64,000 bases of DNA, taken from a virus. Shown here one piece after another: positions 3,271 to 16,074 of this stretch (the first letter of the stretch is position 1; each line of letters starts with the position of its first letter). Both the position numbers and the translations under genes were made by a program. Below the pieces are notes generated by a model, which had not been told where the DNA came from, ran no database searches, and worked only from the letters and a program-made list of their open reading frames with translations. The stretch spans positions 32,001-96,000 of the IMG/VR virus record IMGVR_UViG_3300047548_000772. One strand, 5' to 3'.

Positions 3271-3390
3271 ATGAAGGCATGGTATCGCAAGTACAATGAT
3301 CGACAGTTAAACTCTAGTACATATCACAAAAAGGATGGCACAAATATTCGTGCTAAACTTAAACAATTTTATAAAAAGGAAATGACATGA
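3271..3390 (+). CDS. Small basic hypothetical protein (39 aa)
   Basis: Own translation MKAWYRKYNDRQLNSSTYHKKDGTNIRAKLKQFYKKEMT; GGAG RBS. Confidence 0.55.
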   Translation: MKAWYRKYNDRQLNSSTYHKKDGTNIRAKLKQFYKKEMT

Positions 3391-3469
3391 AACGTGCGAA
3401 ACGTTAGTGTCGACTCTGGAACCCGTATGGTCCTTAGTCGGCACGTAAAATAAATTTACATACGACTAT

Positions 3470-3545
3470 CCCTTTCAGGTGTTGTTGGTAGCATACATGA
3501 CTCTTAATCATCGAGGGCAGAGTTCAAATCTCTGGGGAGGGACCA
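3470..3545 (+). tRNA. tRNA-Lys(CTT)
   Basis: 76 nt; atga-ctCTTaa-tcat; T-arm cagag-ttcaaat-ctctg; CCA. Confidence 0.85.
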
Positions 3546-9910: not shown

Positions 9911-10594
9911 ATGTCTACAACCGTACAGACTAAAATATTGCACAATGTCTACAGCGAAGATACGCTAAACTATCTCAGATCAGAAGTGGATAAGCGTGGC
10001 GTCGAAACAAAAAGTTTTCACGAATGGGAAGGACCAAAGTTAGGTCAACTACTAAGTGTTCGTTATAGACTTGCTTTAGATGAGCATCAAGATCTAAGAA
10101 ACATGGTGCTGTCACCATTGCCCGGCGATATCTCAACTGATCTTATTACGCATAGCTTTTCTCATTTGCGTTCATTTTCGCCATATGAAATTCATTCTGA
10201 TTGTGGATGGATTGAATGCAACGATGACGAAAGCCCATTTTACGCATTTGTTATTCCTTTGGAAACATGTGTGGCAAAAACAATTCTACTAAACCAAATG
10301 CACGAAGGTTTACACTTTGTAGATTATAAAAAGTCATACGGTCCATTACCAAAAGATCAACAAATCTCAGACGAGGACTTTCAAAAGTATTTTAGTCATT
10401 GTTGGCCGCACGAACAAGAGTATATTTCTATTCAAAATGTGTTTGACTGGACTGCTGGTTCAGTCCTTATGTTTGATACTAGATTTTTACACGCTAGCGA
10501 CAATTACATTTTAAATGGACTGCAAGAAAAAAACGCTTTTATTTTGTTCAGCAAAGTAAAAACTAAAAATTTATCAAAGTACTACCAATATTAG
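9911..10594 (+). CDS. Putative 2OG-Fe(II) oxygenase-fold protein
   Basis: HSD ... GSVLMFDTRFLH (HxD...H facial triad pattern). Confidence 0.6.
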   Translation: MSTTVQTKILHNVYSEDTLNYLRSEVDKRGVETKSFHEWEGPKLGQLLSVRYRLALDEHQDLRNMVLSPLPGDISTDLITHSFSHLRSFSPYEIHSDCGWIECNDDESPFYAFVIPLETCVAKTILLNQMHEGLHFVDYKKSYGPLPKDQQISDEDFQKYFSHCWPHEQEYISIQNVFDWTAGSVLMFDTRFLHASDNYILNGLQEKNAFILFSKVKTKNLSKYYQY

Positions 10595-10603
10595 GAGATC
10601 ACC

Positions 10604-10801
10604 ATGGCATTAAAAATTCCTGTTCGAACAGACAGACTCGACGTTGAAAAGTGCGCAGTTAACGCCGGCGGACGATTTAATTTGGTATTACTTGCTGCGC
10701 ATCGCGCAAGACAAATTGCTCGTAACAATCGCGGCAGCGACAAGTTTGAACACATACATCCAGCGGTAACTGCATTGCTGGAGATCCAAGAAGGTAAGTA
10801 A
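10604..10801 (+). CDS. rpoZ: RNA polymerase omega subunit homologue
   Basis: VEKC...RFNLVLLAAHRARQI...ALLEIQEGK matches the RpoZ pattern; AGGAG RBS. Confidence 0.8.
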   Translation: MALKIPVRTDRLDVEKCAVNAGGRFNLVLLAAHRARQIARNNRGSDKFEHIHPAVTALLEIQEGK

Positions 10802-10808
10802 GTTTTAA

Positions 10809-10847
10809 CGGAGTATAGCACAGTCTGGTAGTGCACCTGGTTTGGGA
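10809..10847 (+). pseudogene. 5' half of a disrupted tRNA-Pro(TGG)
   Basis: cggagta acceptor strand, D-arm gcac/gtgc, cctgg-ttTGGga, then the sequence breaks off. Confidence 0.85.
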
Positions 10848-10883
10848 AATTCTCGTTTTTAACACGCTAGCATAAATAATAGT

Positions 10884-11369
10884 ATGAAAAACAGAGTTAC
10901 ACGACCCGGACTTGTTGCAATGAATCGCAAGATTGCTTGCCAGTATTGCAGTAAGGAAACTACCTTAGGAAACATTAAAAAACATGAAGATTCGTGTTAC
11001 CTGAATCCTAAGAATATAGTAAGTTGTAAAAATTGTGGTAGCCCAATTAAAAACTATAAGTCATCAAAAGGCACTTGTAGTCGCAGTTGTGCTAACACCC
11101 ATTTTAAAAGCGGCGAGAATAATGGAAATTGGAAAGGCACACAATACCAAACACTTTGCTTCTCGCAGCACAAGAAAGAGTGCATAATTTGCGGCGAGGA
11201 TAAAATAGTTGCGGTCCATCATTTAAATGAAGACCACAACGATAACAGAATTGAAAATTTAGTTCCGTTATGTCCTACGCATCATCAATATATGCACAGC
11301 AGATATAAATCAGAAATTCAACACAAAGTTGATGAGTATGTTAAGCAGTTTATTCTCAGTGTCGCTTAG
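10884..11369 (+). CDS. HNH homing endonuclease; stop codon inside tRNA-Pro
   Basis: N-terminal CxxC Zn motifs, CSRSCAN, VHHLNEDHNDNRIENLVPLCPTHH. Confidence 0.9.
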   Translation: MKNRVTRPGLVAMNRKIACQYCSKETTLGNIKKHEDSCYLNPKNIVSCKNCGSPIKNYKSSKGTCSRSCANTHFKSGENNGNWKGTQYQTLCFSQHKKECIICGEDKIVAVHHLNEDHNDNRIENLVPLCPTHHQYMHSRYKSEIQHKVDEYVKQFILSVA

Positions 11370-11435
11370 CCTGGCCGATAGCACCTGCTTTGGGAGCAGG
11401 AATCACCGTAGGTTCGAATCCTACCACTGAGACCA
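11355..11435 (+). tRNA. tRNA-Pro(TGG), intact replacement copy
   Basis: ctcagtg/cactgag acceptor; cctgc-ttTGGga-gcagg; CCA. Confidence 0.9.
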
Positions 11436-11473
11436 ATTTGGAGCATAAGGTTCGAATCCTACTACTCCGACCA
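11436..11473 (+). pseudogene. 3' remnant of the disrupted tRNA-Pro
   Basis: agg-ttcgaat-cct T-arm core, then tactccg-A-CCA, exactly complementary to cggagta at 10809. Confidence 0.85.
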
Positions 11474-11485
11474 AGTTTAATTGTT

Positions 11486-12187
11486 ATGAACTATCATTAT
11501 AATCATGTTGTTATATTTTTTCTCCCCGGAGCAGCAGGGAACTTCATAGGTCGTTGTTTAAATTTACTAAACAACGTAAACTGTTTCGTCGACAGTAAGT
11601 TGTTAACTTTTCCAAAAACCATAGAAGAAAAGTTAGAACTTCTGTCCTATCGAGAAGTTGTAAATAGAACTTCCACAGAATCAAATTGGATCGATTTTGA
11701 ACGTAAGATTGGTTTATTTTATAATGTTAGCCAATGGCACGAGCAAATTAGTCATGGCCAATATGTAGTGCAACTTCGTCATCCTGACAGCAACAATCAC
11801 CATAACAACGTTCGTTCCAAAAATGACAGAAATTTTCTAGTTTACATTGATCCTACTGAGGTTTATGAGTGGCACTTTTTAAACTGTTTATATAAAAATA
11901 GTTTTCCAAATGTAAACTATTTTATCGGATCCAAAGAAATTATTCAGGACCCGGATGTGTTTCAACTTAAACTCAAAGGTATAATCACTAACATCGAAAC
12001 ATTTTGGTACGAATTTATTAGACTTTGCAATCACATTGAGTGCAAAGTTAGCCCAGAAGAAGAACAAGCAATTAGAACTTTATACAATCAATGGATCACA
12101 ACAACACTACCCGAAAATAAGTTCGAAGAATTTAAGAATCAAATCGGGTTAAATATACAATTCCCCAGTAGCTCAGCGGTAGAGTAG
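11486..12187 (+). CDS. Hypothetical protein (P-loop/sulfotransferase-like N-terminus); stop codon inside tRNA-Asn
   Basis: VIFFLPGAAGNFIGR motif; start reassigned to ATG 11486 because the upstream in-frame stretch is tRNA. Confidence 0.6.
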   Translation: MNYHYNHVVIFFLPGAAGNFIGRCLNLLNNVNCFVDSKLLTFPKTIEEKLELLSYREVVNRTSTESNWIDFERKIGLFYNVSQWHEQISHGQYVVQLRHPDSNNHHNNVRSKNDRNFLVYIDPTEVYEWHFLNCLYKNSFPNVNYFIGSKEIIQDPDVFQLKLKGIITNIETFWYEFIRLCNHIECKVSPEEEQAIRTLYNQWITTTLPENKFEEFKNQIGLNIQFPSSSAVE

Positions 12188-14048: not shown

Positions 14049-14147
14049 ATGATGTATGGGGTATTTTTTCTAGTGCTAGCGGGCATAATATTGTACGCAC
14101 AAATAGCAGCGGAACGTGAGTTCCAAGAGCGTAACAAAAAGAAGTAA
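14049..14147 (+). CDS. Small single-pass membrane peptide (32 aa)
   Basis: MMYGVFFLVLAGIILYAQ hydrophobic stretch; GGAG RBS; ATAAATA upstream. Confidence 0.55.
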   Translation: MMYGVFFLVLAGIILYAQIAAEREFQERNKKK

Positions 14148-14149
14148 AG

Positions 14150-14445
14150 AATTGTTGTAATTCCTTCGTAGTGAAGGCGTCGTGGACGGCGGTTCGATTC
14201 CGCCCTGCTCCACCAAAAGCATGATCGACCATACACTAGTAATGGTGACATATAACAGATTGTGCTTCTGATGGGGCAGACCTGGTTTCGACAGGGCGAG
14301 ATAGCGAAAGAGGCAACACGAGAGTTGACTGACGTAATCAGCAAACAAAAAGTAAACGCAAACGATGAAGTTTACGCACTAGCTGCCTAAGATTAGGTAA
14401 GCAGGAGTTTTCTGCCGCTTTTCTTGACAACAGAATAAAGCGGCA
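14150..14445 (+). ncRNA. ssrA: Circularly permuted (two-piece) tmRNA
   Basis: T-arm plus ctgctcc-ACCA ends at 14215; 57-nt intervening segment; ggggcag at 14273 completes the acceptor stem with G3:U70; tag frame 14358-14390 encodes ANDEVYALAA. Outer boundaries approximate. Confidence 0.92.
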
Positions 14446-14448
14446 ATT

Positions 14449-15282
14449 TTATCCGTAGACTCGATCTAAAATTTCTTGTGTTATTCCGTATTTTAATAAC
14501 ATAGATTTGGTAACATCTAAGCATCGGGGATCTTCGAGTTTACGACTGTGCTTCCAAACAATACGGTCTTCCCATTGATCAAATTCTTTAACCTGTTGAA
14601 GTATCCCTTCGTAGGTCTGGTGTGTCCATCCACCAGCAAACATCAATGGTGTTTCTTCCGGTCCTAAAAACTCAACCGACTGCATAGGGTCTTTAAGGGC
14701 GAAAAGATAATAAGAATAAATTTCACATAACCCTGGATATATTTTCCAAGTAGAACAATCACCAAATTTTGTATTCAAGTGTGTCCACAAACGGCTAAGA
14801 AGAGCAACGTTCCACAACCAAGGTCTAATGTTTGAAATAGCAGGGTAATGATCAATAGGGCCGTCGACTATCTCGTCGAGATCATAGCCCATCTTAGATA
14901 TTTTTTGATCTAACAACACATAGGTATGTCGATATTTGTTACCTTTTTTAAACGCAGATATATCGCAAGGACGCAGTAAAAAATCCTTGCAATCCCACAC
15001 AAGTATATCGTCGGCACCCGAGTTAACACTATAATGCAAGGTATTAACCTGTTGTTCAGTAGGACCGCACCCATAAGCATGTAGTGTAGGTTTAATTTCA
15101 ATTTTCCACGACGAGTCAAACACCTCATCGGTAATTTTCTTGAACGCCGATTCGTCGTCGTTTTTACCTAAGCATACAATTAAATCTTTGTTACCTTGCC
15201 AATTTTTTGCCAAGCAATAACAAAACATATGAAACTGTTTAATATCATCTTTAAAAGTGGTTACTAACATTCGATAGTTCAT
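14449..15282 (-). CDS. Hypothetical protein, possibly GT-A glycosyltransferase-like
   Basis: Long ORF; DDILVWDCKDF resembles a DxD-region strand. Confidence 0.5.
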   Translation of the reverse strand: MNYRMLVTTFKDDIKQFHMFCYCLAKNWQGNKDLIVCLGKNDDESAFKKITDEVFDSSWKIEIKPTLHAYGCGPTEQQVNTLHYSVNSGADDILVWDCKDFLLRPCDISAFKKGNKYRHTYVLLDQKISKMGYDLDEIVDGPIDHYPAISNIRPWLWNVALLSRLWTHLNTKFGDCSTWKIYPGLCEIYSYYLFALKDPMQSVEFLGPEETPLMFAGGWTHQTYEGILQQVKEFDQWEDRIVWKHSRKLEDPRCLDVTKSMLLKYGITQEILDRVYG

Positions 15283-15421: not shown

Positions 15422-15495
15422 GCGGAGTTGGCATATTGGTTGTGTCCCAGCCTTCCAAGCTGGTCAAAGGAGTTCGATTCTCCTACTCCGCTCCA
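15422..15495 (+). tRNA. tRNA-Gly(TCC)
   Basis: ccagc-ctTCCaa-gctgg; CCA. Confidence 0.95.
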
Positions 15496-15561
15496 TTAAC
15501 CCTCCTGTAGTTTTCTAATGTTGAACCCACAACCATAAATAATTGTATATGGGGGTTCGAT

Positions 15562-16074
15562 ATGGGTAGAAAACATCAAACAAAGACATGTCCAAAATGT
15601 AAAAATAGTCATAACAAGTCTGGGGTATATTGCTCTAGGACATGTGCGAATAGTAGAATTTTTACAGAAGAATCGAGAAAAAAGAAAAGCAACGCCAATA
15701 AAACTTTTTGGAGTTCACTTAGCAACGACGAAAAGGAACACAAAAAACAACTTCTTAAAGAGATTTCTCCCAATTCTGTTAAAAATTATTTAGAATCGTT
15801 ATTGACCCAAGATTGGGATGTATTAGGAATTGCAGCAAAACGGTTGAGAGTTATCATAGAACAAAAAGGAAAATGTAACAAGTGCGGAATTTCTCACTGG
15901 AACGAGGAACGAATTACATTAGAATACGAACACATTGATGGCAACAACGGAAATAATTTAAGAGAGAATGTCGAAGTGCTTTGTCCAAATTGTCACAGCC
16001 AAACTAAAACTTGGCGCGGCAGAAAAAACAAGTCTCGACAAAAGAGGGTCGAAAACTTATTAGAGACACTCTAA
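15562..16074 (+). CDS. HNH homing endonuclease
   Basis: CPKC...YCSRTCANSR N-terminus; CNKC...LEYEHIDGNNGNNLRENVEVLCPNCHSQT. Confidence 0.92.
   Translation: MGRKHQTKTCPKCKNSHNKSGVYCSRTCANSRIFTEESRKKKSNANKTFWSSLSNDEKEHKKQLLKEISPNSVKNYLESLLTQDWDVLGIAAKRLRVIIEQKGKCNKCGISHWNEERITLEYEHIDGNNGNNLRENVEVLCPNCHSQTKTWRGRKNKSRQKRVENLLETL

Follow-up and report, generated by a model that had tools for sequence, protein, structure and literature searches.

The DNA considered here, referred to as the window, is a stretch of 64,000 nucleotides (nt) from IMG/VR virus record IMGVR_UViG_3300047548_000772, namely bases 32001-96000 of a 192-kb contig from an uncultivated virus whose completeness is estimated at ~55%. 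The window starts with a dense array in which ARAGORN finds 30 tRNA genes plus one for transfer-messenger RNA (tmRNA). The segment of interest, 10809-11473, has the gene for a small HNH endonuclease and a complete gene for tRNA-Pro(UGG) lying within another tRNA-Pro gene, with all of its parts on the + strand. The interrupted, resident gene is termed ‘old’ and the complete one ‘new’, and the new gene together with the nuclease gene and its leader is termed the cassette. The arrangement, with a break at position 38 of the old gene, had been proposed from a reading of the letters alone (the original prediction), and the sequence, ARAGORN, Rfam and profile matches all bear it out.

Anatomy of the interrupted tRNA-Pro gene

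The old gene, itself specifying tRNA-Pro(UGG), survives as two pieces. The 5′ remnant (10809-10847) corresponds to positions 1-38 and holds the acceptor strand, D arm, 5′ anticodon-stem strand and anticodon loop, while the 3′ remnant (11448-11473) corresponds to positions 51-76 and holds the T arm, the 3′ acceptor strand, complementary to 10809-10815, and ACCA. Both are evident on inspection and also as partial matches to a tRNA-Pro profile (to its positions 1-39 with E 6.6e-7, and to its positions 46-77 with E 5.9e-5), built from the ARAGORN-called tRNA-Pro genes of the fetched viral loci together with the window's cassette tRNA. Neither piece has positions 39-50, i.e. the 3′ anticodon-stem strand, the variable loop and the first two bases of the T stem. 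Since nine intact loci have a 3′ part identical to 11448-11473, the loss in the window is of exactly 12 nt. The 600 nt between the halves are made up of a hairpin leader, the HNH gene, the new tRNA-Pro(UGG) and a 12-nt filler (11436-11447) that separates the new tRNA from the old 3′ remnant. The earlier figure of 588 nt for the point at which the old sequence resumes needs correction, as 588 nt covers the distance to where the new tRNA ends, and recognizable old sequence is not met again until 600 nt after the break. Judged from its sequence, the resident gene, being split and lacking positions 39-50, is dead. The other 29 tRNA genes of the array are intact by ARAGORN.

The nuclease gene (10884-11369) encodes 161 amino acids (aa). 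Its product matches PHROG 1271 with E 5.8e-12, eight other HNH PHROGs and, below the curated cut-off, Pfam HNH_3 (E 3.5e-4). All 24 residues invariant in 16 relatives are present (CxxC, HH, N and CPTHH among them), so that both the catalytic motif of the HNH (His-Me finger) class and the metal- or zinc-binding residues are accounted for. An AlphaFold model with a pLDDT of 84.5 has two small zinc-finger-like modules followed by an HNH domain, in which strands precede a helix at residues 110-137, possibly a beta-beta-alpha-metal fold. The best Foldseek matches to the model, the HNH domains of McrA, Cap5 and IscB, are weak (E 0.02-0.5), as are those to zinc fingers, and a sequence search of solved structures with the HNH protein gave nothing below E 0.03. 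A GIY-YIG domain was not found in it by Pfam, PHROGs or NCBIfam, all of which match HNH families only. The gene qualifies as free-standing, with its own start and leader, and no intron family matches 10400-11900 at E values up to 10. (A second HNH gene in the window, unrelated to the first, is at 15533-16074; it encodes 170 aa, matches PHROG 10822 with E 4e-23 and lies 67 nt after a gene for tRNA-Gly(UCC) at 15422-15495, with CCATAAATA ahead of it at 15533-15541.)

The leader is 36 nt long (10848-10883). A hairpin, 10848-10898, begins at the very first inserted base and extends over the ATG of the nuclease gene, pairing with it; its RNA folds at -9.2 kcal/mol with a z of -2.8, and 3 of 200 shuffled sequences fold as well. 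In the hairpin loop is CATAAATA (10871-10878), resembling a late promoter. Homologous leaders with this motif precede the HNH gene in two relatives (L004 and L006), and motifs of the ATAAATA type are ahead of it in others (L010, L012, L015, L021 and the cultured phages BF and XbC2). As motifs of the CATAAATA type are not enriched in the window, a promoter role is suggested only by conservation ahead of HNH homologues. It is possible that the leader descended from the 3′ end of an older tRNA-Pro.

The new tRNA-Pro(UGG) gene, 11355-11435, was called by ARAGORN and scores 53.4 bits with the Rfam tRNA model. It has the cloverleaf, UGG anticodon and encoded CCA in a 3′ end, ...G-A-CCA (G72, A73), of the type expected for a bacterial tRNA-Pro(UGG). 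Its acceptor stem, D arm, 3′ anticodon-stem strand and variable loop all differ from those of the old allele. The new gene is the sole tRNA-Pro gene in the 192-kb contig, whose tRNA set covers all 20 amino acids. Across eight nuclease-linked tRNA-Pro genes the stems differ widely, yet the cloverleaf is kept, with compensatory change at 16 of 22 pairs, which argues for cassette tRNAs that work. Both the lack of another tRNA-Pro and these paired changes favour the earlier view that the cassette brings a substitute for what it interrupts.

The junction of nuclease and tRNA genes is itself distinctive in that the new tRNA shares its first 15 nt with the nuclease gene, whose last codons and stop codon they form. 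The same in-frame overlap, with the stop in the D arm, is seen in four lineages (window 11355-11369, L004 3469-3483, L010 3493-3507 and L015 3340-3354), so the junction is old and inherited. With the stop codon inside the tRNA, 5′ processing of the tRNA would strip the nuclease mRNA of its stop codon. Across the family the HNH stop codon falls in the tRNA that comes next, as it also does in a relative with an alanine tRNA in place of proline (L027 3410-3453). The contig also encodes a tmRNA (window 14123-14481), which ARAGORN reports as permuted, i.e. in two pieces, with the tag peptide ANDEVYALAA. Co-divergence of the linked tRNA with the nuclease was considered, and with a correlation between their identities of r 0.26, no claim of co-phylogeny is made.

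The allele that was interrupted is highly conserved and host-like. The 5′ remnant is 95% identical to Acinetobacter tRNA-Pro, and just three bases set the old allele apart from the tRNA-Pro(UGG) of the Acinetobacter chromosome; a scan of bacterial genomes for the old allele found only this Acinetobacter-type allele, 3 nt different. The match hints at the host of the phage or at the source of the allele, though it is proof of neither.

Uninterrupted relatives and other scars

The check proposed in the original prediction, to look for relatives with an uninterrupted tRNA-Pro of the old type, proved productive. A degenerate pattern for the 5′ half matched at least 119 viral contigs, and in all 119 loci listed the gene is uninterrupted, the 5′ half continuing as a tRNA-Pro should. 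In nine of the loci among those matches the 3′ part is identical, at 26 of 26 positions, to 11448-11473. That the outer pieces in the window belong to one gene, as had been supposed, is thereby confirmed.

The gene context of the uninterrupted alleles is also pertinent. Left of the 5′ remnant in the window, at 10604-10801 on the + strand, is a gene like rpoZ, for RNA polymerase omega/Rpb6 (Pfam RNA_pol_Rpb6, E 1.4e-9), conserved as the gene to the left of the resident tRNA-Pro. Homologues of it are present in 44 of the 119 old-allele loci listed, and in 11 loci among those matches (seven distinct sequences) it is 37-124 nt upstream of an intact tRNA-Pro gene, sometimes with a tRNA-Val gene between the two. 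Since the same rpoZ-tRNA-Pro synteny is found in relatives, the window can be taken as a filled site and those loci as empty sites, and the claim that the insertion destroyed its target tRNA gene, intact in this very synteny elsewhere, is upheld. The rpoZ-like gene is often directly upstream of tRNA-Pro (e.g. L038, L057, L069, L070, L090, L093, L135 and L142), and the copy in the window is ~10 residues shorter at its end than the others. Among the flanking genes it alone provided synteny, and when the whole region was compared, as DNA, with cultured phages, the matches were short and to tRNAs only.

A second filled and empty pair comes from another genomic context. There L004 is filled and L113 has an intact gene of the old type (2606-2682), and their flanks agree in that the upstream protein has the same terminal motif and the downstream protein the same start. 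With the window set against the 11 loci with rpoZ-like and intact tRNA-Pro genes, L004 against L113, and a decayed copy (L029, below), presence and absence at one locus are documented, and comparison with related phages shows the cassette to be inserted.

Relatives of the nuclease were found in 28 viral loci, nearly all of them in tRNA arrays; removal of duplicates and addition of two cultured phages gives ~24 distinct loci. In ~16 of these 24, in varied tRNA-array contexts, a tRNA-Pro(UGG) gene is directly beside the HNH gene. It follows the HNH gene directly, in many cases with an overlap at the stop codon, in the window, L004, L006, L007, L009, L010, L011, L015 and L029, and directly precedes it in L012, L013, L016, L020, L021, Serratia phage BF and Xanthomonas phage XbC2. 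A homologue is also encoded by Erwinia phages pEa_SNUABM_12 and pEa_SNUABM_49. Given that proline accounts for ~1 in 20-30 array genes, the association is far beyond chance, although the loci are not fully independent, and from these gene orders the family is evidently one specialized on tRNA-Pro neighbourhoods. In the cultured jumbo phages BF (L151, 787-947) and XbC2 (L152, 650-891) the HNH homologue follows two proline tRNA genes, and the second of those in BF, annotated ‘tRNA-Pseudo’, is like a tRNA-Pro gene, though divergent and of the kind that cassettes have. In contigs of related jumbo phages, three unusual tRNA genes are also called by ARAGORN, one with the four-base anticodon ctgg (L012 3856-3941), one with a CUA, amber-reading, anticodon (L030 2083-2157) and a tRNA-Ser with anticodon ACU (L010 4877-4965).

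In a sister clade of HNH genes, the reading frame ends inside a tRNA-Ala(UGC) gene or an Ala-like 3′ part (L018, L020, L022, L025, L027 and L031). The layout of L027 is that of the window with alanine for proline, having the first 21 nt of a canonical tRNA-Ala (2806-2826), then the HNH gene, then a complete tRNA-Ala (3410-3484) with a G3:U70 pair. Other fusions in this clade are at L022 3378-3431 and in L025, where a whole tRNA-Ala is upstream (2617-2691) and an Ala-like 3′ part overlaps the end of the reading frame (3310-3358).

Scars comparable to that in the window are present elsewhere in the proline family. In L004 an old-type tRNA-Pro is reduced to its first 10 nt, after which come leader, HNH gene and the cassette's own tRNA-Pro, and L005, from a different sample, is identical to it. 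L006 has a ~26-nt 5′ tRNA remnant upstream of the HNH gene. L029 (2990-3245) is a decayed cassette, with the leader fused to the last 39 HNH codons and followed by an intact tRNA-Pro and an old-type 3′ acceptor remnant, which in its gene order looks like a degeneration stage of the homing cycle. In the four proline scars, the sole segment lost in every one is positions 39-50, and the cassette tRNAs differ from the old allele there. The shared loss is a hint that the site of recognition or cleavage is in the 3′ anticodon-stem strand and variable loop.

Proposed capture of the cassette and rival explanations

The preferred interpretation, to which a probability of about three in four is assigned, is that of an HNH homing cassette that is within a resident, host-like tRNA-Pro gene and has a hairpin leader and a fused tRNA-Pro(UGG), with no self-splicing intron involved; it would be cut-and-rescue-like behaviour directed at an RNA gene. 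The nuclease would cut the conserved resident allele in a genome lacking the cassette, and the break would be repaired from a cassette-bearing genome in the same cell. Where the two genomes have homologous flanks, the old allele would simply be replaced. Where the tRNA is all that they share, as in the window, the cassette would be captured by illegitimate joining, leaving the halves of its victim as a scar; it is from donor and recipient having just the tRNA in common that capture by non-homologous joining is inferred here. The cassette tRNA, presumed to escape cutting, would then restore decoding of proline codons. The nuclease is likewise predicted to discriminate, cutting the old allele and sparing its own tRNA. 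Consistent with that, no HNH homologue was found in any of the 119 old-allele loci listed (1.07 Mb), and none of 10 HNH-bearing records, the window's contig included, has an anticodon arm and variable loop of the old type with two mismatches allowed.

Several observations weigh against this interpretation. Most of the records just mentioned are fragments, so the mutual exclusion of HNH gene and old allele is suggestive only. The empty-site relatives are distant, their rpoZ-like proteins being 41-58% identical, and the flanking 227-aa and 232-aa reading frames have no close homologues in viral contigs. The window's HNH protein is without an N-terminal segment of ~33 aa that its closest relatives (L004, L006 and L007) possess, so its activity may be altered or reduced. 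In one subclade (L012, L021, BF and XbC2) the HNH gene is downstream of an intact tRNA-Pro gene, so the arrangement in the window is not universal, and the identity of the linked tRNA tracks that of the nuclease weakly (the r of 0.26 given above). Clear microhomology is present at neither cassette junction, and the filler, 11436-11447, resembles three potential sources about equally well: it could be a templated patch from the anticodon-loop segment of the new tRNA, a piece of the 5′ end of an old-type tRNA-Pro, or the donor's downstream flank, akin to the ribosome-binding flank that follows tRNA-Pro in relatives. Filler and old 3′ piece together (11436-11473) fold as a small hairpin like an acceptor and T arm (-8.7 kcal/mol, z -1.85), which may be a matter of chance or a chimeric remnant.

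Short repeats deserve mention in this context. Between the old and new alleles there are a 15-nt near-repeat and, over 30 nt, a stretch with 87% identity. The original prediction had the GACCA at the end of the new tRNA matching the GACCA expected at the break. The match is real, as intact alleles have GACCA at positions 37-41, but the old sequence does not continue after the new tRNA's GACCA; the bases there differ from old positions 42-50, so GACCA on its own is insufficient to explain the right junction. An integrase-borne element with a tRNA attachment site was considered and rejected: the 600-nt insert has no integrase or recombinase, just the HNH reading frame and a tRNA, and the repeats are similarities of one tRNA to another and not junction repeats.

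The main alternative is a general cutter and amplifier of tRNA genes like SegB of phage T4, in which the HNH protein would see a motif common to many tRNA genes and the halves would be by-products of rearrangement, with nearby tRNA genes being duplicated, deleted and amplified locally, for instance so as to out-express a host defence that targets tRNAs. SegB does recognize a T-loop motif and cut many tRNA genes (PMC2330249), and drives tandem amplification of a tRNA-segB unit (PMC13096335). In the present family two tRNA-Pro genes are beside the HNH gene in L006, XbC2/L021 and BF, the start of the T arm (11448) is the point at which the old sequence resumes in the window, and the 3′ remnant may be chimeric. 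However, SegB is without isotype preference (PMC13096335) and the cassette nucleases keep to one isoacceptor, proline, or alanine in the sister clade. The other 29 tRNA genes of the array are unharmed, and two remnants amounting to one gene minus 12 nt are better explained by a single insertion than by a duplication plus two deletions. Such an origin is thus considered unlikely, if the most serious competitor. Less probable again is that the nuclease was a bystander, an HNH-tRNA block having landed in tRNA-Pro by ordinary illegitimate recombination with the enzyme having its target elsewhere or none at all. Nothing ties the break directly to the enzyme, the junctions look non-homologous, and phage nuclease genes are often at recombination boundaries (PMC10448857). 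Still, mere coincidence fits poorly with a family whose members, in several contexts unrelated to one another, adjoin or interrupt tRNA-Pro genes and are accompanied by remnants of that isoacceptor (window, L004, L006 and L029; alanine in L027), and with ~16 of 24 distinct loci adjoining tRNA-Pro despite its scarcity in arrays.

Two further possibilities are very improbable. The contig is a metagenome assembly, and strains with different tRNA-Pro alleles might have been joined artefactually through the 15-nt and 30-nt similarities, but at neither junction is there a shared repeat of sufficient length for assembler k-mers, both flanks run on in one tRNA array, and separately assembled contigs have equivalent scars (L004 and L005, which come from different samples, L006 and L029); the position of the junctions and the recurrence of the scars together make an artefact unlikely. 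The other is a split or intron-containing tRNA-Pro that still functions, by splicing or by pairing in trans. The break does adjoin the anticodon loop, near classical tRNA intron positions, and the 5′ and 3′ pieces have acceptor strands that complement each other. Nevertheless, the insert is filled by a reading frame and a tRNA, a functional replacement is present and, with 39-50 in neither piece, no splice could rebuild the tRNA and no cloverleaf results. As no group I or group II intron model matches in the interval and to the limit given above, this possibility, the least probable of all, is rejected, and the original view of the insert as intronless, for which Rfam offers no intron match and the halves no complete tRNA, holds.

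Relation to known systems

The closest known system is SegB of phages T4 and T6, a free-standing homing endonuclease whose gene is in a tRNA cluster and which cuts inside tRNA genes (PMC2330249; PMC13096335). Like the cassette, it involves a free-standing nuclease gene in a phage tRNA array and no intron. It cuts tRNA genes of phages that lack it, thereby driving inheritance of itself and of neighbouring tRNA genes. The likeness is behavioural and not familial, as SegB is a GIY-YIG enzyme directed to a generic T-loop motif irrespective of isotype. It also has no dedicated tRNA fused to it, and descriptions of it do not place it within a broken tRNA gene for which it supplies a substitute. The tRNA region of phage T5 includes genes for HNH endonucleases (Akulenko et al. 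2004, cited in PMC10644984 and PMC2330249). From those descriptions T5 and the cassette are alike in having HNH-type site-specific endonucleases among phage tRNA genes, and the passages that cite the T5 work report neither a split target tRNA nor a fused replacement.

Intronless homing is exemplified by MobE of T4 (PMC2790892) and by SegF and SegG (summarized in PMC2330249). As these are portrayed there, the nuclease gene is beside a conserved gene, the enzyme cuts the allele of a genome without it and the resistant allele is co-converted, which is what is proposed for the cassette. In the accounts given of them, however, repair is via homologous flanks and the target is replaced cleanly and whole, whereas in the window two dead halves persist on either side of a complete spare. 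The anticodon loops of bacterial tRNA genes can harbour mobile group I introns that have homing endonucleases (PMC2330249), so those genes too are broken near the anticodon loop by a mobile element equipped with a homing nuclease. Such introns depend on a ribozyme and splicing, while the window is without a ribozyme and function would be secured by a second gene copy. A parallel of another sort is with fungal mitochondria, where free-standing homing endonuclease genes come with partial duplicates of the neighbouring gene (PMC7487136). There, as in the window, arrival of a nuclease leaves duplicate or pseudogene fragments of the adjoining gene, though the genes are protein-coding ones of an organelle, the nucleases are LAGLIDADG or GIY-YIG enzymes, and the duplicate covers part of a gene, as against a whole and independent replacement. 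A search of the literature, without most subscription journals, found no paper on a nuclease cassette that carries a whole replacement tRNA inside its victim gene.

Two other types of system, one natural and one engineered, have a comparable logic. Integrative elements rebuild the 3′ end of a tRNA gene at their attachment site by integrase-mediated site-specific recombination. Synthetic cleave-and-rescue gene drives, an engineered Cas9 system, destroy an essential gene and carry a functional copy of it. With both, as with the cassette, an essential gene is interrupted and a copy is brought along. Whether the HNH family as a whole is a natural cleave-and-rescue drive, specialized on single tRNA isoacceptors (proline here, alanine in the sister clade), is a bolder and as yet doubtful extrapolation. 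Were it correct, the nuclease would remove a conserved, host-like allele from competing phage genomes, with the fused tRNA being both an antidote and a moving target that diverges so as to stay uncut. The stop codon inside the tRNA would couple nuclease output to 5′ processing of that tRNA, and elements of this sort would be a main force behind the way in which phage tRNA arrays are assembled and turn over.

The material lends itself to experiment, with a small nuclease, two 77-nt candidate substrates, cultured phages (Serratia BF and Xanthomonas XbC2) that have relatives of the gene beside tRNA-Pro, and scars that predict the enzyme's cutting site. The arrangement would show a homing endonuclease invading an essential RNA gene without an intron, by means of a spare copy, and would be a natural counterpart to engineered cut-and-rescue gene drives. 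It would also provide a concrete mechanism for the spread, replacement and diversification of tRNA genes among large phages, with a bearing on why the tRNAs of phages differ from those of their hosts.

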